Shown here one piece after another: positions 4,051-46,941 of a stretch of DNA of 64,000 nt. The DNA comes from a virus. The stretch lies in IMG/VR virus record IMGVR_UViG_3300033977_000098, positions 10,637-74,636 of that record; one strand, written 5' to 3'. Each line of letters starts with the position of its first letter. The stretch's first letter is position 1. The notes beneath the pieces were generated by a model that was not told the DNA's origin, did no database searches, and saw nothing but the letters and a program-made list of their open reading frames with translations. The translations under genes and the position numbers were made by a program.

Positions 4051-6588
4051 TTACCGCCCGAGCAGAGCCGCCGCCGGACTGTTCGGCGCCATCAGATGTG
4101 CGGGAACAGGCCCGGCCTTGATGAGCCGCGCGAGCTTCAGTTTGGCGTCGATATCGCCCTGCGTGAGTCCTTTCACAACGTCGTCCTTCGTGGGCTGTGC
4201 CGCGTTGGCACCTGGCGGCACTGCGCCCGTGTCGTTTTCCTTCGGCCCGGCAGGGTGCGTGACGGGCGGCGCCGCCTTGACCAGAACTTGTGTGCGATCA
4301 CCGATCCCGGGCGCCGTACCGCCCGTATTCTCGGGCTCGCCGTACATGGCGATGAAGATTTTGTTCATGTCTTCCAAGCTCTGCTCGCGCGATTTGGCCA
4401 GCTTTTCGTCGAGCAGCTTCACCACGTCTTCCAGAGTGAACGCTTTGTCATTCGGATGCGCCTGGCCCGGATATGCGCCCTGGGTGCCGCCGCCGACCGA
4501 AGTCGGGGCCGGACCTGCGCCCGCGACATCGACGCCGCTGATCGTCTTGCTCGCATCGACGCTGGCACTCGCGCTCGCGCTCTCCGAAACGCTGGCGCTG
4601 CCCACGGCCTTCAAGACGCGATTAATGATGCCAGTGCAGCCGTCCATGTGACCCTTGGCCAACGCGACCGCCCGGGAATGGTGCGCCTTGTGCATCGTAC
4701 CCAGCACTCGCAGGAGATCGCCAGCACTGCGCGCCTTAGCCAATTCTTCCTGTGCCACTTTTTCAAGCTGTTCGAATTCTTCCATGGTTTTGTTCTCCTT
4801 TGCGGCCAGTGCGGCCTTTTCTGCCTGAAGTGCTTCCAGTTCGCGCGTTTCCAGTTCGACTAAACTCGTCATGCAGCCGATGGACTTATCGAGGAGCGCG
4901 GCCACATCTTCCGGATTGTCGCCCTCTTCTGCCGCCGCTGCCTTCAGAAACTCGACGGTGTCGTGGACCTCAGCAAGCTGCTCGGCTGTCCATTCGGCGG
5001 CCTTGCTCATGTCGGGCTCCATGAGGAATTGATACGCCAGGGCGATCTTCTTGGCTTCAGCGGAAACCTCAATCCCGAACTTCTTGGCGGCCGCCCGAAT
5101 ACGCGCCAGCACCTTCGACTCTTGCTCGGAAGGAATGCCTTTATGCTGTCCCCAGCGCGCCAAGGCGTTCCGCACGTGCGCGGCATCGTGAATCGGATAC
5201 TTCCACGTCGCGATGTCGTCGGGGTCCCCGACATAGGCGAAGTCAGAGGCGTGCAGGTCTTTCCCACCCTTCCGTTTCGTCTTGCCCGCTTTGGTGAGTG
5301 CTTCCCAGGCTTTGAGTGCGGCGGTTTCCGGGAGCGGCTTTTCGAGAGCCACGCTGGCTGGGTCGCGCAAGTCCGTCTTGCAGCATTCCGCCTGCGCCGT
5401 GGCAAGTGACGTGTCGCTCAATTCTTTTCCGCACTTCGCGCAGTAAACGGCTTCGCGCTTTCTTACCTTAGCGATGAGCGCCTCGACGCGCGCCAAGTCC
5501 ATGCCGACAGCTTCAGGGGCCATGTGAGCCCCCACGATTGCCGCTAAATCGGCTTTGCCAACTTCTTCATAGGTCTGCCGGACCTCGATGGGATCTCCGA
5601 AGGTGATCTCGCCATCCTTGCCCATCTTGTAAGGGATTTTGTAGGTCTTGCTGTCGCAGTCCACATAGACTTCGGCGTCCGTGAAGTCGCGCATCCAGCA
5701 ATACTTACCGCTAGGCGCCCCCATGTCCATGCCCGACCGTGGGTTGTACTTGTCGCTCACCGCGTCGCGCAGCACGCGCTCTTTCTGTTCGTGGGTCAAC
5801 TCTTCAGCCTTGATGAATTCAGCTTTCAGTGCTGCTTTGATGCCCGCAGCGGCGCATTTGGGGCACATGGTTTCGCTGCCCACGGCCTTGAACGTCTTGC
5901 CGCATTTGGAGCATTTCGTATCGCCGGTGGGCGCAGGCTGAATTGTGCCGTCAGGTCCGACCGTAACGCCGCTTCCTGGAGTTTGTCCGTAGGGCGGAGG
6001 GACGACAGGCTTCGCTCCTTCCTCGGGCACCGGGGGGAGGCCCCCAACGCTAGCGACTTGCGCCTTCTTGAATTCGCGCTGTTCGCTCATGCCATTCGCC
6101 TTGACCAATTCGAAGCGCGCTTCCTTGAGACAAGGCGAGTCCACAAGAGAGATTTCGCCGGGCTTTGCCGTGTACCAGGTGTATTCGCGGGTTTGTTTCG
6201 TGGCCGGATCGGTGTACGGCGCGCGCCAAGTCTTCACGTAATTGCCGCCCTGAGAGAAGCCAGTGTAAACACCTTCCATCACCTTCTTCCAGGCGTCGTC
6301 GTCCACGACCTTGAAGCCCATGGCGATCTGTCTATTGGCATCGCGGAAGTCAATGGATTTCCCCACTCCTGCGGCTTTGAGCTGATGCATTTCCCGCAAG
6401 GGCGCGATGGACTTTCCATCCGTGGCCTTACTAAATTCTTCATTCATGTCTTTGTAGTAGGGTACGGTGGAGGTGTAGTGGAGAACCTCATCATCGCGGT
6501 CGGGCCGTTCGCCAGTCACGACGCCATAGACAGTGCGCGTCGCTTCGTCTACTTTGGCAAGCGGCCAGAATTTTCGGAAGTTCAACAT
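4051..6588 (-). CDS. Prohead protease/scaffold multidomain protein
   Basis: Protease-like N-terminus (RTVYGVVT...LREMHQ...YTGFSQGG...EISLVDSPC), CxxC zinc ribbons, DFAYVGDPDD...WKYPIHDAAHVRNALAR module, helical C-terminus. Confidence 0.75.
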   Translation of the reverse strand: MLNFRKFWPLAKVDEATRTVYGVVTGERPDRDDEVLHYTSTVPYYKDMNEEFSKATDGKSIAPLREMHQLKAAGVGKSIDFRDANRQIAMGFKVVDDDAWKKVMEGVYTGFSQGGNYVKTWRAPYTDPATKQTREYTWYTAKPGEISLVDSPCLKEARFELVKANGMSEQREFKKAQVASVGGLPPVPEEGAKPVVPPPYGQTPGSGVTVGPDGTIQPAPTGDTKCSKCGKTFKAVGSETMCPKCAAAGIKAALKAEFIKAEELTHEQKERVLRDAVSDKYNPRSGMDMGAPSGKYCWMRDFTDAEVYVDCDSKTYKIPYKMGKDGEITFGDPIEVRQTYEEVGKADLAAIVGAHMAPEAVGMDLARVEALIAKVRKREAVYCAKCGKELSDTSLATAQAECCKTDLRDPASVALEKPLPETAALKAWEALTKAGKTKRKGGKDLHASDFAYVGDPDDIATWKYPIHDAAHVRNALARWGQHKGIPSEQESKVLARIRAAAKKFGIEVSAEAKKIALAYQFLMEPDMSKAAEWTAEQLAEVHDTVEFLKAAAAEEGDNPEDVAALLDKSIGCMTSLVELETRELEALQAEKAALAAKENKTMEEFEQLEKVAQEELAKARSAGDLLRVLGTMHKAHHSRAVALAKGHMDGCTGIINRVLKAVGSASVSESASASASVDASKTISGVDVAGAGPAPTSVGGGTQGAYPGQAHPNDKAFTLEDVVKLLDEKLAKSREQSLEDMNKIFIAMYGEPENTGGTAPGIGDRTQVLVKAAPPVTHPAGPKENDTGAVPPGANAAQPTKDDVVKGLTQGDIDAKLKLARLIKAGPVPAHLMAPNSPAAALLGR

Positions 6589-28891: not shown

Positions 28892-29739
28892 TGGGCGAGA
28901 ACTCCAAGATAAGTTGGACGCACCATACATTCAACCCTTGGTGGGTTTGCACGCAAGTATCCCCGGGCTGCGACCATTGCTACGCCATGGAGCTGGCGCA
29001 CCGGCTTGGTTACGACTGGAACCAAAATGCGCCGCGCCTGTTCTTTGGCGAGAAGCATTGGAGAGAACCCTTGCGCTGGAATCAGCGCGCCCAAAGTCAG
29101 GGTGAACGTGAGCGCGTCTTCTGCGGCTCCATGTGCGACATCCTCGACACTTGGCAAGGCGAAATCATTTACTCCGGTGCACCGCCCGCGCAAGAACGCG
29201 CCAGGAAGTGGTGGGGAACCGGTTGGCCGCAGGCTTGGGGCGCCCGTCCTGTCAATCTCAATCTCGCCCGCGAGCTACTCTGGGAACTAATCGACGCCAC
29301 ATATTGGCTCGACTGGCTTCTGCTTACGAAACGGCCCCAGGATTACCGCAAGATGTTGCCTCGGCGTTGGCTGAAGAATCCCCGTCCAAACGTTTGGATA
29401 ATGACCACAGTGGAAAGCCGCGAATACCTGTGGCGACTAGATGCCATCGCCGCGATCCCCGCCGTGGTTCACGGCGTGTCGTGGGAGCCGGCGCTTGGGT
29501 ACATCAACTTTATACCCTACGCTCAGCGTATGCCGTCGCTATGGGTGATTGGAGGTGGTGAATCCTGCGCTGGCTGCCGTCCTTTTGACCCCAACTGGGC
29601 CAGGCTGGTCCGCGAGGATCTGGCGCCGACCCACACGCCGTTTTTCCTGAAGCAGCTTGGGGGGCACCCAGACAAGCAAGATAAACCCGCGCGCTGGCCG
29701 CCCGACCTCCGCGTACAGCAATTTCCGGTAGTGTCCTAA
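28891..29739 (+). CDS. DUF5131 / phage Gp37Gp68 family protein
   Basis: SKISWTHHTFNPWWVCTQVSPGCDHCYA, VFCGSMCD, LLTKRP, SWEPALG, GGES, FFLKQLG. Confidence 0.9.
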   Translation: MGENSKISWTHHTFNPWWVCTQVSPGCDHCYAMELAHRLGYDWNQNAPRLFFGEKHWREPLRWNQRAQSQGERERVFCGSMCDILDTWQGEIIYSGAPPAQERARKWWGTGWPQAWGARPVNLNLARELLWELIDATYWLDWLLLTKRPQDYRKMLPRRWLKNPRPNVWIMTTVESREYLWRLDAIAAIPAVVHGVSWEPALGYINFIPYAQRMPSLWVIGGGESCAGCRPFDPNWARLVREDLAPTHTPFFLKQLGGHPDKQDKPARWPPDLRVQQFPVVS

Positions 29740-29746
29740 AATTGCG

Positions 29747-29774
29747 TTGACAACATACTTGAAACTGCTAAACT
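29747..29774 (+). promoter_or_regulatory. Sigma70-like promoter for tnpB with -35 box from the TIR
   Basis: TTGACA-N16-TAAACT with extended TGn. Confidence 0.55.
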
Positions 29775-29820
29775 AAGAAGTGGCTGGAGGGCCGTAACCC
29801 TGCCAGCCACAAGCCAAAGG

Positions 29821-30987
29821 ATGTCGAGGCATCCGATGACCAACCAAAGTATAATCCGCCGCACCTATCAGTTTCAACTCCGCCCTACAAAAAGACAGAT
29901 TCGTTTGCTTGAATCGGCTTTGGCTGTGTCCTGTGAGGTTTACAACGCGGCTCTTCAGGAAAGGCGTGAGGCTTGGAAGCGCTGTCGCAAGAGTGTAACC
30001 GCTTTTGACCAAACTAAGGAACTCACCGAAATTAGAGCGATTCGGATGGATGTCGCAGAGTTGCCCGTCGATATGGTGCGTGAGCCGATTCGCCGGGTGG
30101 ACAGAGCGTTTCAGGCGTTTTTCCGAAGGTGCAAGGCAGGCCAGAAGCCAGGGTTCCCACGTTTCCGCTTGCGGGACCGCTATGACTCTCTGGCGATGTC
30201 TTCTCCAACCTTCAAGGTTGAAGGGGGAACCATCATTGTGAGCAAGATGGGCGGCTTCAGGATGCGGATGCACCGCGAAATGCGAGGCACGCCGAAGCAC
30301 TGTACCATAAAGCGCAGCGGGAAACGCTGGAGGGTTTCGATCACTTGTGAATGCGGCCCTGTTCCCGAGAGGAAGCCTGTATCTTCGGCTATTGGGATTG
30401 ATTTGGGCTTGACGCACTTTCTCACGTTCTCGGATGGCCAGATAATTGACGCGCCGAAATGGGTGAAGGAAAGTGAAGCGGAAATCGCACGCAGGAACCG
30501 CGAATTGGCAACCAAAAAGCGGGGATCGCGGAATCGGCGCAAAGCAAAAGAGCAACTGAGGCGGGCGCACGAGCGCGTGGCGAATCGCCGATTGAACTTT
30601 TGCCACCACCTCTCGAAGCGGCTGATGGAGAATTTCGACCTTGTCGCTTTCGAGAAGCTGAACATCTCCAGTATGATCAATGGAAAGTTCGATAAGAACA
30701 TCTTGTCGGTGGCGTGGGGAATTCTGCTCTGGCAACTCACCTACAAAGCTGCGAACGCTGGCAAGTGGGCAGTGCCGGTCAATCCCCGAGGGACGACGAA
30801 GCGATGTTCGGGATGCGAAACGGAAGTTCCGAAAGCCTTGTGGGACCGCGTTCATCGTTGCCCCCGGTGTGGTTTGGTGATCGACAGAGACCATAATGCC
30901 GCTATCAACATACTTTCCGAAGGTTTGCGGCTCGGTAGGAGCCGTGCGGAGCCCTTGCTCCAAAGAGTCCCGTCAACGCAATTTTAG
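29821..30987 (+). CDS. tnpB: TnpB RNA-guided endonuclease
   Basis: TYQFQLRPT N-terminus, PGFPRFR, RuvC GIDLG / AFEKL / DRDHNAAINI, CSGC...CPRC zinc finger. Confidence 0.93.
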   Translation: MSRHPMTNQSIIRRTYQFQLRPTKRQIRLLESALAVSCEVYNAALQERREAWKRCRKSVTAFDQTKELTEIRAIRMDVAELPVDMVREPIRRVDRAFQAFFRRCKAGQKPGFPRFRLRDRYDSLAMSSPTFKVEGGTIIVSKMGGFRMRMHREMRGTPKHCTIKRSGKRWRVSITCECGPVPERKPVSSAIGIDLGLTHFLTFSDGQIIDAPKWVKESEAEIARRNRELATKKRGSRNRRKAKEQLRRAHERVANRRLNFCHHLSKRLMENFDLVAFEKLNISSMINGKFDKNILSVAWGILLWQLTYKAANAGKWAVPVNPRGTTKRCSGCETEVPKALWDRVHRCPRCGLVIDRDHNAAINILSEGLRLGRSRAEPLLQRVPSTQF

Positions 30988-31586
30988 GACACTACCCAAT
31001 CCACAAGCGAATAAGCCCACTGGCAACCGTCATCAGCGCGACAGGCTGAGGGCACACTTGATAGCGCCTCTGAACATCATCTTCCCGTAGCAGAGCAAAG
31101 CGAAAGGACAAACCTCGTGACCACCCAAGAATCCCTTCTCGTCCAACAAAGCCGCGACCCTAACGTGGTCATGGCCATCTTGGTCGATATTATGCTGAGA
31201 ACCGTTTCTGGTCTCAGCGCCCTGCAACTTTCGTTTCTTCACCAACAACCCCGTTATATCAATTAAAATCTCTCGAAAGGAGAATCACCGTGGACTTCCT
31301 CAGTCAGTTCAAAGCTGCGCGCAATGCCAGCACGCCGCTCATTGCAGTCAGCCGTGCGCAAATTCCGAGTCTGAGAAAGGAGCAAAACCGTGTTAGCCCA
31401 AATCCAAGCTCTCCGCGTGTTCTGGTATCGCGCCAGCGGCCAGTACGACCGCACCGTGAACCGCCGACTCGCGGAAATCCGAAAGGAGAAATCCGTGAAC
31501 CCCTACACCTGCGTTGCCTGTGGCGGCGCAATCGACAACAAAGGCTTCTGCCTGAACTGCGGCGCCCAGGCCGGCACCGTCTGCCC

Positions 31587-40455: not shown

Positions 40456-40612
40456 GTCGCTCCTGAGCTACGGTGATAGGCAACCCGAAAGCTGTATAGA
40501 CGGGTTTTTTTGATTCGTCAAGCGGCAAGTCGAGGCGGTAGTGTCTTAAAAGTGCGTTGAAGCCGTCCAAATAATTCTTGATTCTCTTCCTGCCCAGTTT
40601 TAACTTGGAAGC

Positions 40613-40927
40613 ATGAAAAACAATTCGAACGGCGATAGCATTGAAGCCTTGAAAAACATGCTCTCCGAGGTGGACTTGCTTCTTTCCACTACGGAGCCCT
40701 TGCCACAGAACCGGACGCCACGATGCCGCGAATTGCTCTCCGCTGCCTTAGCTTTGGCCGATGACCTCAGCAAACAAGAGGGAGTCTCTTCCGCCGCTGC
40801 CCTTGGCCACAAAGGGGGCAGTACCACGGCCAAACGCCATGGGCCTGAACATTATCGCCAGATGGCCGCCGCCCGCAAGACCCACCGGGGCGGCAGGCCG
40901 CGCAAGAAATCCGAACAACCGACCTGA
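40613..40927 (+). CDS. KGG-motif small basic protein
   Basis: AAALGHKGGSTTAKRHGPEHYRQMA. Confidence 0.6.
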   Translation: MKNNSNGDSIEALKNMLSEVDLLLSTTEPLPQNRTPRCRELLSAALALADDLSKQEGVSSAAALGHKGGSTTAKRHGPEHYRQMAAARKTHRGGRPRKKSEQPT

Positions 40928-41663
40928 ATTCCTGCTAAAGTTTTGGTGGCCGCCTAGCCCGGCCAGGCGACAAACGGGAACCCTACCCGCTGGCGGCTAC
41001 TCCCCTTTAAGGGCATCGCTGAGGGAGCGATGGCCTCTTCTGATTTCTGGCGAGACCTTGCCAAAGAATTTCGAGCCATACTAGGCTCCGAAACGCTTCA
41101 GGCTCATTGGGAATGTGACGCTGAAACCAATGAATACAAATCCAAACCACGTCCTCCAAAGTGGCAGTAGTCGCCTTCAGTTTTCCCCTGTTTCCCCCAT
41201 TCCTCCCCCATTTTCCCCCCAATAAACCCCGATAGACACGCCCTATTTTAAGGCAGTATTTTGAATGCGTTGCGGTGGAAGCCTACCCGCAGAAAGCAGA
41301 AAGGCCAGCGAAACGATTCTTGAGGCGCGTTTCGCTGGCCCTCTGAGAACTTGGGCCTAGCAGGTTCGCCGGGAACGCCCGCAAAGCAACTCCCGGAGAG
41401 TTCGAGTCGCTCGCCTGGCAGCGAGCGTCACACTCTTTGTGCTGACAAACACTAGAGTAGCACGGGGGTGTGTCAAATGCAACTCTGGATTTGGCATCTG
41501 CATGTCGCCCCACGAACAATTCGACCTATGGTGAATTAGGCCATCGAAAAGAGAGGCAATTTGAACTTGGTACTGAAAAGAAAATCTTTACAGAATCAGA
41601 ATTTGAAAAACTGCCATCAACAAAAGATCAGACCCAGATAAGCTCTCATACGGAGCCCGTCGA

Positions 41664-41936
41664 ATGAGGATTCTTCTCATCACTTACGAGTTGAAGAATA
41701 AGTTGAAGGACTATTCCTCTTTTTTCGAGGCAGTAAAAAACAACGCGCATCAGTGGTGGCACTTTCTTCCTTATGTTTACATTGTGGCGACTTCTTACTC
41801 AGCGAACGAATATGCAAATTTCTTACTCCCTCACATCCAGAGGGCTGATAACTTGTTGGTGGTGAGGATTACTGCGGAACATCAGGGATGGCTGCCGAAG
41901 GATGCATGGGACTGGCTCAACGATAAGCAGTATTAG
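41664..41936 (+). CDS. Small protein, possibly Cas2-like ferredoxin fold
   Basis: LLITYEL...DYSSFFEAVK...WWHFL...DNLLVV...GWL. Confidence 0.5.
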   Translation: MRILLITYELKNKLKDYSSFFEAVKNNAHQWWHFLPYVYIVATSYSANEYANFLLPHIQRADNLLVVRITAEHQGWLPKDAWDWLNDKQY

Positions 41937-41988
41937 TTTTCATCAACGCACATTCAAGACATTACCGTCGAGGCGGTACTGGCTGAAT

Positions 41989-42552
41989 TTATGTTGCTGA
42001 TTTTTTGGTCTCGGGAAAAGTTACCTCGCCGTCCGTTAAGGTCATCAACAAGGTACCGTTGTCTTTGACCCACTGAAAGGGAACGTTCTTTCGGTACCGT
42101 TGTGGGTACGGGTCAGGATATTGGGCGAGCCACTTGCTGAAGAACGCTTTCATTGAACTGCCGTGGGCGTAGCGCAGGTCCACACGGCGAAGGTTATCCC
42201 GATGGTCGAAAAACAGATGGCCAACTTCCGAGTCTCGCTTTAGTTTGGCTTTGCCGGTGTTCTTGTGATACTGATACTCGTAGTTGCCGCCGTCTTGGGA
42301 CGATTTAACTTCATACTCTGATAAGTCGATACCAGCCGCCAGTTTCTTACCGACATCCTTCACCAGGATGGAAGCGAACACCTCCCAATCAGAGGACATT
42401 GCCACGCCCGGAGGCCGGACTTGGCGCGCAGCATACAATCTTAGTTTCCCGTGAAGCGGACCGTACATATAGGCGTGGAAAAACATCAACGCCTTCTCGA
42501 AGTCCAGCTCCGATGGTGGACCACCGATGATGTGGGGTGCTCTGTAGCGCAA
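41989..42552 (-). CDS. Putative type II restriction endonuclease
   Basis: WEVFAS...GIDL...EVKSS PD-(D/E)XK pattern, next to the C5 methyltransferase. Confidence 0.6.
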   Translation of the reverse strand: MRYRAPHIIGGPPSELDFEKALMFFHAYMYGPLHGKLRLYAARQVRPPGVAMSSDWEVFASILVKDVGKKLAAGIDLSEYEVKSSQDGGNYEYQYHKNTGKAKLKRDSEVGHLFFDHRDNLRRVDLRYAHGSSMKAFFSKWLAQYPDPYPQRYRKNVPFQWVKDNGTLLMTLTDGEVTFPETKKSAT

Positions 42553-42568
42553 GGTTTGACGGCCAGCT

Positions 42569-43795
42569 TTAAGCGACAGACTGCAACTCGCCGGAGGTCG
42601 CCAAAGGCCGCAGGAGATATTTCTCTAGCCAGCCAACGACTGGAACCACAACGCCGTCGCCGAAGACATGATAGGCTTCGTTATAGTTATTCGCAAGCGG
42701 GTAATCGTCAGGGACGCCCATTAGCCGCGCGGCCTCCCGAGGGGACAGGAGCCTTGTACGAATATAGCCGTTCTCGACGATGATAACTGTTTGACGGCTT
42801 GACCCGCCCACGGGAGTTCTCAGGCATCCCGAAATACCGTCAAATCGTACTTCGGCGCACTGCTTCATAATCCCTTCACGGTTTGGACGGGTGCGCTTGT
42901 AGATGGTTCCGACATGCCGACCCGTGAGCTTGCTTACTTTCGCCACCTTAGCCCGATGCAAAGGGCGCATCAGATCAAGGACTTTTTTTGTCTCCGCGTC
43001 GCTATGCCAAGCGGTCAGGACAGGAAGCGCCTGAATTACTGAATCCAGCCGGGAAGTCGGTGCCTGGGGAATCGGCAAGTTCCACCATACCCAATGAGAT
43101 CTAACAGAGGCTGCAAGGCCGTCAACGGCCCTAAGCAGTGAGTGCGGGTGCCAAGCTCCTGACGCAGATTGTTCGTAGAGACCGTTTTTCAAGTGAAGGC
43201 TGGCTTTAACGCCCACCAAAAACAATCGTGGCCGAGACTGCGGTAGGAAGCGAACCGCGTCGATGACTAACGCCCCGACTTTATAATCTATCCCTGCGAA
43301 CCCCGCGACTATGGCGGCGAAGTCGCTCCCTCCGTGAGAGGTCAGTGTTCCAACTACGTTCTCCAGAGCGATAACGGTAGGGCCACGTCCATCGCTCACC
43401 AACCGTTTAACGAGTCGCCAAAACGGTCTGAACGTGCCGCTCCGTTCTCCATTAAGACCAGCCCCTGATCCGGCTAAGGAAAGGTCCTGGCAAGGGAACG
43501 AAGCCCATACAAGATCGCATCTGCCTGGCAAGTCATCCGCTGAAAGTTTCGCCACATCCTCAACCTTCAATTCGGGAGATGGCCCGAAAAATGAGCGATA
43601 CGCCAGCGCCTTTTTCGGGCACCACTCGTTTGCGAAGGTGCATTGCCATTTGCGCCCAAGGCCGAGTCGGGCCATCCCGCCGCCTGCGAAAAACTCGTAC
43701 CATGTAAATCGCCGTTCAGCCATTTCCGCCTTCCAAAAACCTTCGGATTCGATTGCGGGTGCCATTTGCATTGACTTCGCATTCCCAGACGACAA
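42569..43795 (-). CDS. dcm: DNA cytosine-5 methyltransferase
   Basis: EFFAGGG, SFPCQDLS, LENV, PQSRPR, REAARLMG. Confidence 0.92.
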   Translation of the reverse strand: MSSGNAKSMQMAPAIESEGFWKAEMAERRFTWYEFFAGGGMARLGLGRKWQCTFANEWCPKKALAYRSFFGPSPELKVEDVAKLSADDLPGRCDLVWASFPCQDLSLAGSGAGLNGERSGTFRPFWRLVKRLVSDGRGPTVIALENVVGTLTSHGGSDFAAIVAGFAGIDYKVGALVIDAVRFLPQSRPRLFLVGVKASLHLKNGLYEQSASGAWHPHSLLRAVDGLAASVRSHWVWWNLPIPQAPTSRLDSVIQALPVLTAWHSDAETKKVLDLMRPLHRAKVAKVSKLTGRHVGTIYKRTRPNREGIMKQCAEVRFDGISGCLRTPVGGSSRQTVIIVENGYIRTRLLSPREAARLMGVPDDYPLANNYNEAYHVFGDGVVVPVVGWLEKYLLRPLATSGELQSVA

Positions 43796-44126
43796 GAGAT
43801 TTCCAGCCGAGTTGCCTTAGTTCTTTTCTTACCCTCGTATCCCTCTTTTCGTTTCTCGTCCTTTTGGCCCTCCAATAATCCCGATTCGATGCTGGAAGGT
43901 CGGCGGCTCGGCATGAATGCCCGTGCCAAAAACAGCCATGCACAAAGATTACTTTATGTAATCGGCTGAAAACCAGATCGGGATGACCTGAAAGTTTCTC
44001 GGAGTGGAGTCGGTACCGAAACCCCATGTCTGACACCAAAGCGCGAACTGCGATTTCAGGCTTTGTGTCCTTCGAGCGAACCCGACGCATTATTTCGCTC
44101 CGCTTTCCTGGCGTAAATATGTCCAT
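43716..44126 (-). CDS. vsr: Very short patch repair endonuclease
   Basis: RSEIMRRVRSKDTKPE, GHPDLV, FVHGCFWHGH, VVWECE. Confidence 0.93.
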   Translation of the reverse strand: MDIFTPGKRSEIMRRVRSKDTKPEIAVRALVSDMGFRYRLHSEKLSGHPDLVFSRLHKVIFVHGCFWHGHSCRAADLPASNRDYWRAKRTRNEKRDTRVRKELRQLGWKSLVVWECEVNANGTRNRIRRFLEGGNG

Positions 44127-44131
44127 ATGAT

Positions 44132-45076
44132 CTACGCTCGCAGCAATTCGCTTATACTCCAAACGTGGTCAGCAATTCCAGCCTCCATTCCAGGTGTCAC
44201 TCTCAATGTCATGTGCGGACGGCACAGGTTGTACCACGCGACATACAGAGCAACGGCTGCTTTCAGGTTGTCGAGCTTTTTGCTGAAAGCATTAACCAGT
44301 CGCGTGAATCGGCGAAGGTGCATCCGGAAATTCAGGTTGGAACGTTCCACGTGGCTGGTACAGACGTGATCGAGATCGGGGTTGCCAGTGATGGGATTTG
44401 ATACCGTGTCGATGACCTTGGCCGGACCGTACCAGTCCGGGCCAGCATTGTCCGGCTTTCCGTACAGTTTGATGAGTTGGGCAAAGTCCACATCGGCGCC
44501 GAAACATTCCTCAATGGCTCCAATGTAGGGCTTGAAAGCATCGGAAGTTATCTGCGTTCGAGTAGCCAGCCGTCGGCTGAGGTCGGTCACGAAATTTAGG
44601 GCGCTCGGGCCGTCGCGCTTCGCCACCAAGTGAGAAATTATCAGCTTCGTGTCTGCATCCAAAGCAACCCAAGTGTAGGCGTCGCCCCATTCGTTAGAAT
44701 CACTAGACTTAAGGTGTTTCTCTTTTTTGAAAACGAAGGTCCAAAGCTCATCGAGTTGAATATATTTCGGTCGAAGGCCACGGATGCGGGTGTCAAGAAG
44801 GCTCTGACACTTCCCTCCCGTCGTCACAAGGATAGAAAGAAGCGTGTTGCGGTCTACTCCAGTAACGCGGGATATGCCACGGATACTCATTCCCTCTACC
44901 ATCAAGGATATGACCTCCGCAGTCCGATCAACGCTCAAGTAATGGCTGCCAAACCTATTGAATCGCGTGTCACTGAAAGTTGTCTTGCAATTCTGGCAAC
45001 GGTAACGCTGAATCTTGTGTCTGCCGTATCTCCCAAAGCGTTTCACGTTTTCGTGCTTGCACCTAATGCAGGTCAT
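44132..45076 (-). CDS. IS1-family transposase, single ORF
   Basis: Zinc finger CIRC...CQNC, HTH, QLDELWTFV, ITSDAF, HVERSNL...RRFTRLVNAFSKK. Confidence 0.88.
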   Translation of the reverse strand: MTCIRCKHENVKRFGRYGRHKIQRYRCQNCKTTFSDTRFNRFGSHYLSVDRTAEVISLMVEGMSIRGISRVTGVDRNTLLSILVTTGGKCQSLLDTRIRGLRPKYIQLDELWTFVFKKEKHLKSSDSNEWGDAYTWVALDADTKLIISHLVAKRDGPSALNFVTDLSRRLATRTQITSDAFKPYIGAIEECFGADVDFAQLIKLYGKPDNAGPDWYGPAKVIDTVSNPITGNPDLDHVCTSHVERSNLNFRMHLRRFTRLVNAFSKKLDNLKAAVALYVAWYNLCRPHMTLRVTPGMEAGIADHVWSISELLRA

Positions 45077-45200
45077 TGGACTCTCCTTGACAATCCCAGC
45101 GGAGAGTCCGACAATTGCATCGGGTCTTTCCATGCGGGCTGAATCCGCGTGGGAGATTTGCCCCGCAGACAGTTAGCCGCTGCCTGCGGGGTTTATTGTT

Positions 45201-45374
45201 TTAGGCCGACTTCTTTTCCATTCCCTCCGAGACGGCGCGACGGAGCACCGTCACAATATAGTCTTTGAGGCTCATCCGGCTCTGAGCAGCACGTGTCTTG
45301 CACAGCCAGTACAGATCGTCAGGAAAATTCCGCACGTTTAATGGCCTCACGTCAATCTGCTTTGACCGTCTCAT
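45201..45374 (-). CDS. Ribbon-helix-helix regulator
   Basis: LNVRNFPDDLYWLCKTRAAQSRMSLKDYI; GGAGG RBS. Confidence 0.6.
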   Translation of the reverse strand: MRRSKQIDVRPLNVRNFPDDLYWLCKTRAAQSRMSLKDYIVTVLRRAVSEGMEKKSA

Positions 45375-45494
45375 CGCGTCCTCCATCGTCACGATAGTAA
45401 CATTGGTAACTAAGAATGTCAAGACATTTTTTGTGACCACCTGGCTACCAACACCTTTCACCGCGCATCAGACTTGTGGTATCGTCTGACCGCC

Positions 45495-46346
45495 ATGCGC
45501 TCCTTAATTTTCGTCATCAGATTCGATCAAGGACTCGCCAAACGGCACCGGCTGCCGCTTGACCACGCCCTTAGTGCACTCCGCGAGGTGCGCTTGATGA
45601 TTCAGGAGGTCGGGCGGCAAATTCAGCGTGAAAAGGGAATCGAGAGGGCGACCGGCGATTTCGGCCTTGAATTGGTGGGCGGCATCAAAAAAGGCAGCGT
45701 GCAGGTTGACATTGCGCTTACACAAGACACGCAGAACGCCCGGGAGACAGCAGAGCAGATCATTTGCACGGTGAATTGGCTTGCGAAGATGGGCGGACGT
45801 GCCGACGAGGTAAAGCAACCGGACGAAATCAGCAGGCATGTTGTGCGGCATCTCAACCGGATTGCGGAGATTCAGAGGACCGACAAAACCGAAATGCGGC
45901 TTGAACTTAAGAATGGCAAGAAAAAGCGCGAAGCCACGTTTGGAGAAGCCGCAATTGCATCCACCGAAGTGCTACGCTCTCCGCAGTTCCAAATGGGCGG
46001 CACCACGCTTTATGGCAAACTCTATGAACTGCGCGACAGTTCTCCCGAGGAGGAGGAAGGAAAATATTTTTGGGGAGAACTAGTGCGCGATAACGACGAG
46101 CATTGGCGAATTCAGTTTGAAAGCAACCGCGCTAACGAAGCGGTTCCCCTTTTCAGAAAGCAAGTCGCAGTGACAGGAACAGCATTCTATTACCCCGTTC
46201 AAACCCCGAAGCTCGTTGCTGAGAGCTTCGGGCCGGATACGGACCGTGATTATGAGGCCGCATTTGACGAACTATACGGGTCCAAACAGGCACTTTACAA
46301 GGCTCCCCTTGATGATCTTTTGAAGGAGATTCGTGGAGAGGGTTAG
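45495..46346 (+). CDS. Hypothetical protein coupled to PIN gene (putative antitoxin/partner)
   Basis: Stop/start overlap with the PIN ORF. Confidence 0.55.
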   Translation: MRSLIFVIRFDQGLAKRHRLPLDHALSALREVRLMIQEVGRQIQREKGIERATGDFGLELVGGIKKGSVQVDIALTQDTQNARETAEQIICTVNWLAKMGGRADEVKQPDEISRHVVRHLNRIAEIQRTDKTEMRLELKNGKKKREATFGEAAIASTEVLRSPQFQMGGTTLYGKLYELRDSSPEEEEGKYFWGELVRDNDEHWRIQFESNRANEAVPLFRKQVAVTGTAFYYPVQTPKLVAESFGPDTDRDYEAAFDELYGSKQALYKAPLDDLLKEIRGEG

Positions 46347-46915
46347 TGCTTTCTGCCTATTTCGATACCAGTGTTTTCCTGGCCATCTTTAATGCAGAGC
46401 CCAGCGGTCCGCAAATCAAGACGCTGCTGCGCGAATTAAAGCGCGACCGCGTGCGCATTTATACGTCGATCATCACAATTCAAGAAGTATCGGTTTTGTC
46501 ATTCCGCAAGGGCGGAGCGGGGGATGATAATTACGTCCAGGTCGGAAAGCTGGCGAGAATTGAGACGATCACGCGGGAGATTGCGCTATTAGCGGCGAAG
46601 ATCGAAGCCCAGCTAATCGACATGCTTCCAAAGGACCAAGAGGACAATAAGCGCCGAAAGTGGGACTGCTTTCACATCGCAACGGTTGTTCAATTGGGAT
46701 GTGGAAAACTCTACGCGGAAGATAACAAGCTATTGAAGCGAAAGGCGCAATTGGGATTGTCAATCGATTTTCTCCAGCCGCGTCCCCAAAGCCCGGACTT
46801 ATTTCCTCCCTCTGTCCCGGCATCCGTTGTGCCTGTTCCCCTGCAGCCTCAGCCATCGCCAGCCGAAGAGGAAGCTGACGCATCCGAACCGCCAAAGCAC
46901 AAGACAACGGAATAG
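46346..46915 (+). CDS. vapC: PIN-domain (VapC-like) nuclease
   Basis: AYFDTSVFLA, TSIITIQEV, DCFHIAT, YAEDNKL. Confidence 0.8.
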   Translation: MLSAYFDTSVFLAIFNAEPSGPQIKTLLRELKRDRVRIYTSIITIQEVSVLSFRKGGAGDDNYVQVGKLARIETITREIALLAAKIEAQLIDMLPKDQEDNKRRKWDCFHIATVVQLGCGKLYAEDNKLLKRKAQLGLSIDFLQPRPQSPDLFPPSVPASVVPVPLQPQPSPAEEEADASEPPKHKTTE

Positions 46916-46941
46916 CAAGCAACAACAATTCAGCCACTACC

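Follow-up and report, generated by a model that had tools for sequence, protein, structure and literature searches.

Introduction

Cas12 descends from TnpB, an RNA-guided nuclease that now also serves as a compact genome editor. What is known of TnpB biology comes from IS605 and IS607 elements, which are excised without a scar; transposons moved by DDE transposases leave breaks and duplications. The locus described here and its relatives are natural cases in which to ask what such a nuclease gains from residing in DDE transposons. The locus lies in a 64,000-nucleotide stretch of viral DNA (the window), which is part of the 74.6-kb IMG/VR virus record IMGVR_UViG_3300033977_000098; this record is estimated to be 73% complete and comes from a peat metagenome. 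At positions 29727-30996 of the window, an intact tnpB gene is enclosed by perfect terminal inverted repeats (TIRs). We consider this element likely to be a non-autonomous IS1-family transposon, which carries TnpB and its omega RNA module as cargo, is mobilised in trans, runs the guide-RNA scaffold through its right TIR, takes the guide from the flank, and belongs to a clade with a long history on DDE-type ends.

Closest described systems

The closest described systems are the TnpBs associated with DDE transposases. Altae-Tran et al. (2023, PNAS) distinguished six such branches (DDE-1 to DDE-6), all with inverted terminal repeats, as well as solo TnpBs with the same ends as elements that encode a transposase, for which mobilisation in trans was inferred (PMC10691335; here and below, statements drawn from cited papers refer to the passages of them that were consulted). 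The partners ISL2, IS630 and IS1031 are named in a 2026 review (PMC13565253). IS200/IS605 and IS607 elements, on the other hand, have neither TIRs nor target-site duplications (TSDs) (PMC4810608, PMC13565253).

The window element shares with the DDE-associated TnpBs the placement of tnpB within inverted repeats, with its 3' end less than 250 bp from the element end (in the window, the stop codon is inside the TIR), and the occurrence of solo copies that bear the ends of transposase-bearing elements and would move in trans (PMC10691335). It differs in its partners: those named for the described branches are IS630, ISL2 and IS1031, whereas the ends found in the window's clade are IS1-like and IS1595-family. 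An RNA stem linked to the TIR and a switching of ends do not appear in the passages searched of PMC10691335 and PMC13565253. Full-text searches found no paper that names IS1 or IS1595 as a TnpB partner; the matches, going by title and abstract, were unrelated genome surveys. The arrangement has been known in outline since 2023 (PMC10691335), and the partner family, the end switching and the TIR-linked stem add detail, not a new principle. With the principle already published, the gain is one of detail and breadth. One TnpB clade sits on both IS1 and IS1595 ends, with a putative 3' stem that changes with the transposon end and with known partners, so that the start of the guide, the transposon-associated motif (TAM) and the borrowed transposase become addressable. 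The element is also one more piece of evidence that small cargo transposons abound in soil phages.

With the IS200/IS605 family, and ISDra2 TnpB in particular, the window protein shares the fold along its whole length, the catalytic residues and the zinc finger; with the IS1341 group of that family, the element shares a tnpB-only content, a size of ~1.2-1.4 kb and conserved hairpins overlapping the 3' end of the gene. IS200/IS605 elements are without TIRs and TSDs (PMC4810608, PMC13565253), whereas here the TIRs are perfect over 25 bp, TIRs occur clade-wide, and relatives have TSDs of 8-9 bp, with 7/8 or 8/8 matching positions in 10 of 24. The IS1341 group has subterminal hairpins in place of TIRs and inserts 3' of a target of 4-5 nt. 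An earlier note on this DNA had stated for IS200/IS605 and IS607 that tnpB elements lack TIRs, which holds for these two groups only and not for the DDE-associated TnpBs (PMC10691335).

A further comparison is with IS1-family elements that carry passenger genes or are deletion derivatives. The ends are common to the window element and to an element around an IS1-family transposase in another phage contig, and TSDs of 8-9 bp are found in relatives and in a neighbouring element. Unlike these, the tnpB element does not encode a transposase of its own; what it carries is an RNA-guided nuclease, and the RNA of that nuclease appears to make use of the right end. The ends of the element start with GGTAGTG, in line with the IS1 consensus GGnnnTG of ISfinder; literature searches for consensus ends of IS1 or IS1595 subgroups returned nothing usable. 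The eukaryotic Fanzors, too, are TnpB-type nucleases carried as cargo by cut-and-paste transposons with TIRs and TSDs, but they are longer, occur in eukaryotes and giant viruses, and belong to other transposon superfamilies (Bao and Jurka 2013, PMC3627910).

The tnpB element

The element comprises the following features:

29727-29751, no strand: left TIR of the IS1 type (GGTAGTG...), in which the upstream DUF5131 gene has its stop codon (29737-29739) and which covers five bases of a six-base -35 box
29747-29774, + strand: promoter-like site TTGACA-16-TAAACT with TG before the -10 box, 10 of 12 consensus matches, reading into tnpB
29780-29810, + strand: hairpin in the tnpB 5' leader (GTGGCTGGAGGG / CCCTgCCAGCCAC), read from the sequence
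29821-30987, + strand: intact tnpB (388 aa if started at 29821, 383 aa if started at the ATG at 29836)
30972-30996, no strand: right TIR, with the tnpB stop codon (30985-30987) inside

The two arms form a 25-bp inverted repeat without mismatch (GGTAGTGTCCTAAAATTGCGTTGAC), of a kind that arose in none of 100 dinucleotide-preserving shuffles. Between them, over an element length of 1.27 kb, tnpB is the sole cargo and there is no transposase. The ATG at 29836 is favoured as the start by the gene caller and by homologs, and the stop is TAG. Upstream, the DUF5131 gene ends with a TAA in the left TIR. Because a DUF5131 homolog terminates four residues past the same RVQQFP motif, the insertion removed only the last few codons (about four), which the TIR replaces while also supplying the stop. 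The leader hairpin is not conserved in the aligned relatives.

The protein matches the NCBIfam model guided_TnpB with 271 bits (cut-off 100) and is above cut-off for Pfam HTH_OrfB_IS605, OrfB_IS605 and Cas12f1-like_TNB; the second-best NCBIfam match is the IS200/IS605 TnpB model, at 229 bits and under its cut-off of 425. Residues 13-369 match the solved ISDra2 TnpB (PDB 8exa, 8h1j) with an E-value of 5e-41. D194, E278 and D357 align with the RuvC catalytic residues in the ISDra2 motifs GVDVG, E and DRD, and these three residues, together with the zinc-finger cysteines C329, C332, C347 and C350 (CxxC...CxxC), are invariant in 13 homologs. The main observations of the earlier note on the element therefore stand: tnpB as the only cargo of perfect 25-bp TIRs (repeat scan, shuffles and a single open reading frame, ORF), all three RuvC acidic residues, and TIRs that provide the -35 box, but for one base, and the stops of both tnpB and the DUF5131 gene.

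Relatives and the boundaries of the mobile unit

Homologs were sought in a collection of 5.8 billion proteins, and further scans of phage, metagenome and genome collections gave ~150 related loci. The closest proteins in the collection are 69%, 63% and 62% identical (P0002 69%, P0004 and P0007 60-62%), and two of the closest end in ...STQF like the window TnpB, a sequence encoded by the TIR (TCAACGCAATTTTAG). Relatives that are 40-63% identical and have both flanks are mostly tnpB-only elements of 1.13-1.38 kb with TIRs of 16-32 bp directly around the gene. Below ~40% TnpB identity, TIRs are absent. In all, over 20 relatives, found in different genomes, have TIRs around tnpB; these TIRs are of three types, and the tnpB stop is inside the right TIR throughout the clade. 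Many loci that fail the repeat scan keep tnpB and a typical right end, with the left end lost or eroded.

Directly outside the TIRs, TSDs matching at 7/8 or 8/8 positions are present in 10 of 24 tnpB elements, seven of them perfect; among relatives with IS1-type ends, L125 has 8/8, and L150 and L108 have 7/8. The closest homolog whose DNA was compared is L150, 63% identical and from a Terriglobia metagenome-assembled genome (MAG), with the ends GGAAGTGTCCTATTTTCGCTCG / GGTAGTGTCCTAATTTCGCTTG. The earlier note had set against its proposal the case of close homologs with hairpin ends and no TIRs. This case did not appear: TIRs are present in the 63% homolog and in the majority of relatives with ~40% identity or more, in many cases together with TSDs of 8-9 bp. 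As a separate observation, the L150 element lies inside an unrelated 28-bp inverted-repeat pair (TGGCCCGTAGGGGCGAACCTCGTGATCG; 1189-1216 / 2517-2544), which indicates a nested insertion into another repeat element.

Three tnpB paralogs in one MAG are ~88% identical from outer TIR edge to outer TIR edge and unrelated beyond. That MAG has no additional copies of their TIR; a partner is found instead in the phage contig L336. Another MAG contains both the tnpB locus L157 and a 627-bp element (L204:1501-2127) with perfect IS1595-type ends, an 8-bp TSD (CTCGAAAT), ORFs of 82 and 106 aa and no tnpB, so the same ends carry different cargo within one genome. The paralog boundaries, the TSDs outside the TIRs and the presence of the same ends on other cargo or on none show that the TIRs are the true ends of the mobile unit. 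A tnpB and a transposase inside one TIR pair were found in none of the 158 tnpB loci or the 24 paired IS1595-type-end elements; in L007, tnpB and an IS1595 transposase are 1.6 kb apart, and no common TIR pair was found.

IS1-type ends and candidate transposases

The label "IS1-type" is based on two independent transposase-bearing elements, one of the L085 kind and one in the window (41975-46941). The former, found in other phage contigs (L085, L086), is a 2957-bp element bounded by the window TIR at 23 of 24 bases, with a 311-aa transposase and three small passenger ORFs. The L085 transposase scores 34.9 bits with Pfam DDE_Tnp_IS1 (cut-off 24.1) and 99.7 bits with NCBIfam transpos_IS1 (cut-off 100). 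The window itself contains these related features:

40537-41966, no strand: second IS1-type element, non-autonomous, with the 8-bp TSD GTCGAGGC at 40529-40536 / 41967-41974
41975-46941, no strand: third IS1-type element, with related TIRs (GGTACTGGCTGAATTTATG... / GGTAGTGGCTGAATTGTTG...) whose arms are 86% complementary, enclosing a transposase gene
44132-45133, - strand: IS1-family-like DDE transposase, with homology from the Met at 45076 (probable start), candidate mover of the tnpB element in trans

The left arm of 40537-41966 is identical to the tnpB element TIR at 22 of 24 positions, and the ORFs at either end of this element share 45% and 39% identity with passenger ORFs of L085. Since it keeps both outer passenger-ORF homologs and is without a transposase, it is a deletion derivative of an L085-type element. 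The transposase at 44132-45133 is 45% identical to that of L085 and scores 96.9 bits with NCBIfam transpos_IS1, just below the cut-off of 100. Both neighbours had been pointed out in the earlier note, and both observations are borne out, that of an IS1 transposase at 44132-45076 with the addition that the ORF extends to 45133. The transposases at window 44132-45133 and at L085:5800-6735 are candidates for acting in trans on the tnpB element.

The third element, of ~5 kb, directly adjoins the TSD of 40537-41966, and no TSD was seen for it. Its cargo consists of a C5 cytosine methyltransferase gene (42569-43795), a Vsr-like gene (~43716-44162), a small ribbon-helix-helix-like ORF (45201-45461) and the transposase. 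In L087, two right-hand IS1-type TIRs (1932-1955 and 4646-4669) stand in the same orientation 2.7 kb apart, and neither has a left partner at up to 6 mismatches.

Types of ends and the TnpB tree

Three types of ends surround tnpB in the clade:

IS1 type: GGTAGTGTCCTAA..., the window's kind
First IS1595 type: GGGAATTATATACATGAGTAC..., which encloses IS1595-family transposases
Second IS1595 type: GGGCAACAACATACTTGACTCAC..., which encloses an IS1595-family transposase (L336)

All TIR-bearing TnpBs form one clade (support 93-96 in the Shimodaira-Hasegawa-like approximate likelihood-ratio test, SH-aLRT), with the TIR types mixed inside it. The basal lines have IS1-type ends, both IS1595 types are nested, and the window copy pairs with the Terriglobia copy at a support of 98. 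Most members of the clade come from Acidobacteriota-type soil bacteria and from phages of these. On a by-eye reading of the ends and a quick tree, the TnpB module has switched vehicle between DDE families, probably more than once. Capture by DDE-type ends is an old trait of the whole clade and not a recent event at the window locus. The proposal in the earlier note that TnpB was captured by a DDE-type non-autonomous element is upheld in one respect, as the ends match those of an element with an IS1 transposase, and has to be given up as a recent local event.

Just inside the left TIR, positions 29752-29763 of the window read AACATACTTGAA, of which 11 consecutive bases match the core of the second IS1595-type TIR (GGGCAACAACATACTTGACTCAC; L155:2253-2275). 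This may be the leftover of an earlier change of ends; no remnant matching that core is present at the right end of the window element. An almost identical stretch (ATCAACATACTT) also codes for the conserved INIL motif at 30905-30916.

Putative guide-RNA scaffold and guide position

The features that bear on the omega RNA are as follows:

30928-30996, + strand: putative 3' part of the omega RNA scaffold, made up of hairpin 1 (30928-30944), hairpin 2 (30948-30961), the terminal stem and a tail
30967-30970 with 30987-30990, + strand: terminal stem of the putative scaffold, GUCC with GGAC, followed by unpaired ACUACC
30997-31016, + strand: predicted guide segment in the flank outside the right TIR (CAATCCACAAGCGAATAAGC), placed by the OMEGA layout, the mobile-unit boundary and the terminal stem

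Hairpin 1 covaries across 20 relatives. The terminal stem joins the sequence just 5' of the right TIR to the central part of that TIR, and a tail of 5-7 nt (...ACUACC) separates the stem from the flank. In 15 relatives with IS1-type ends, this stem takes six compensatory forms, namely GUCC/GGAC, GGUC/GACC, GGCUC/GAGCC, GGGUC/GACCC, GGUUC/GAACC and GCUA/UAGC. When the upstream arm was paired with its own TIR and with permuted TIRs over the three types, the energies were -10.0 and -7.0 kcal/mol, respectively (p<0.0002). The stem is absent at left ends and in most elements without tnpB. The folding energy of the window 3' region is ordinary (z 0.36), so the case for structure rests on covariation, not on stability; Rfam gave no match in 29600-31200. 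On this comparative evidence, the right TIR is most likely part of the guide-RNA scaffold, with the guide itself probably beginning in the flanking DNA beyond.

A further hint comes from the bases around the insertion sites. A G immediately precedes the left TSD in 9/10 tnpB elements (L008, L096, L108, L118, L125, L150, L152, L155 and L158), against 2/10 on the right side and 10/34 outer positions of elements without tnpB. This one-sided G may be the trace of a TAM, as expected if the guide begins at the TSD; the sample being small and mixed, the signal is a hint only.

Proposed mechanism and alternatives

In the explanation that we favour, an IS1-like DDE transposase acting in trans, either that of 44132-45133 or one of the L085 type, would recognise the 25-bp ends and move the cassette. 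The tnpB gene would be transcribed from the promoter overlapping the left TIR, with its ORF ending in the right TIR, and processing of the transcript's 3' end would yield the omega RNA, with a scaffold that spans the right TIR and a guide read from the flank, which here starts CAATCCACAAGCG. By analogy with IS605 and IS607, TnpB would then cut copies of the phage locus that have no insertion, which would favour retention of the element or its copying into them; in a phage, such cutting could hit co-infecting relatives.

Several points weigh against this explanation. The TIRs of 41975-46941 match those of the tnpB element at only ~17 of 25 positions, which makes cross-mobilisation by the window transposase uncertain, and both IS1-like transposases fall just under the NCBIfam IS1 cut-off and are distant members of the family. 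The terminal stem is weak in the window (4 bp plus 2, -5.7 kcal/mol) and lacking in roughly half of the elements with first IS1595-type ends, so that the stem evidence is moderate. Nothing past the single G emerged as a TAM from the 10 mixed elements. The sorting of TIRs into types was done by eye, and the phylogeny came from a quick maximum-likelihood search with SH-aLRT support only. Finally, no TSD accompanies the window copy: the flanks CAATTTCC / CAATCCAC agree at 5/8 positions, which is chance level (p 0.77 against random position pairs), whereas the flanks of 40537-41966 show the IS1-family hallmark of 8-9 bp at 8/8. The tnpB element is also a single copy in the 74.6-kb record. For these two reasons, the window copy may have arrived by recombination or may be immobile at present. 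The earlier note had suggested looking for other copies and empty sites. Relatives with TSDs were found, and the record yielded no second copy; neither an empty site nor a joint across the element was present in one DNA read set, probably from the source sample, and the DUF5131 relatives in phage contigs, at most 43% identical, are too distant to serve in finding one.

Among the alternatives, the one that survives best, although we regard it as improbable, is that the window copy no longer transposes and that the phage keeps TnpB and its guide for a use of its own, such as homing-like cutting of co-infecting relatives without the insert. The absence of a TSD and the single copy would fit, as would the almost whole DUF5131 gene, the many relatives that retain tnpB and the right end without a left TIR, and the report that most TnpB clusters are immobile (PMC10691335). 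However, TIRs that are perfect over 25 bp argue against long decay, and a related transposase is encoded 13 kb away. A homing role is, moreover, compatible with mobility, and to that extent this alternative overlaps with the transposon explanation given above.

It is very unlikely that the TIR itself is the guide, as the earlier note had proposed with TTGAC as the TAM. The scaffold would then stop at ...GTCAAC, and a fixed guide (GCAATTTTAGGACACTACC) would aim TnpB at IS1-type ends, its own or competing ones, rather than at the host flank. In the window, the inner TIR edges do read TTGAC and GTCAAC, and the TAM of ISDra2 TnpB, the closest solved relative, is TTGAT (PMC13565253); the 19-nt remainder of the TIR has a normal guide length, and cleavage at its far end would fall near the element edge. 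But GCGTTGA is also found in IS1-type TIRs without tnpB (L085 and window 40537), so no TAM is needed to explain it, and the inner edges of relatives with IS1-type ends do not carry TTGAC and TCAAC. In real IS1-type ends it is TCAAC, not TTGAC, that precedes the would-be target. Since the context of the target would equal that of the guide-encoding DNA, self and target could not be told apart. The middle of the TIR sits in the stem with six compensatory variants, which is how a scaffold behaves, and the moving unit includes the TIRs up to their outer edges, with a one-sided G upstream of the TSDs that suits a flank guide. A related version, in which the right TIR as fixed guide leads TnpB to cut both edges of its own element (RNA-guided excision) or rival IS1 elements, is highly improbable; if it were true, an RNA-guided nuclease would do part of the transposition chemistry.

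A one-off nesting, in which an IS605/IS1341-type tnpB element landed in an existing IS1-type miniature inverted-repeat transposable element (MITE) or in an abutted TIR pair, with TIRs unrelated to TnpB, is scarcely tenable: it could appeal to the missing TSD, the leader hairpin at 29780-29810, the resemblance of TTGAC/TCAAC to IS605-type target and right-end sequences and the second-best match to the IS200/IS605 TnpB model, but it is close to refuted by the relatives, where TIRs of three types directly flank tnpB in more than 20 cases with TSDs directly outside, paralogs are conserved exactly from TIR to TIR, the tnpB stop is in the right TIR clade-wide and the leader hairpin is not conserved.

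Other elements with IS1595-type ends

Ends of the first IS1595 type are frequent in phage contigs, at no fewer than 120 loci among the matches listed, and among these a perfect 8-bp TSD accompanies 17 of 24 paired ends. Their cargo is an IS1595-family transposase, a C5 methyltransferase, small ORFs, or nothing. The transposases match Pfam DDE_Tnp_IS1595 with E-values of 1e-38 to 1e-47 and NCBIfam transpos_IS1595 with 196 bits. In IMG/VR (L212-L291, ends GGGAATTATATAC..., IS1595 family), the elements among the matches listed range from 275-bp MITEs up to 3.5 kb. Those bearing a C5 methyltransferase are represented by L248 and L287, and the TSDs are mostly perfect over 8 bp and rich in A+T.

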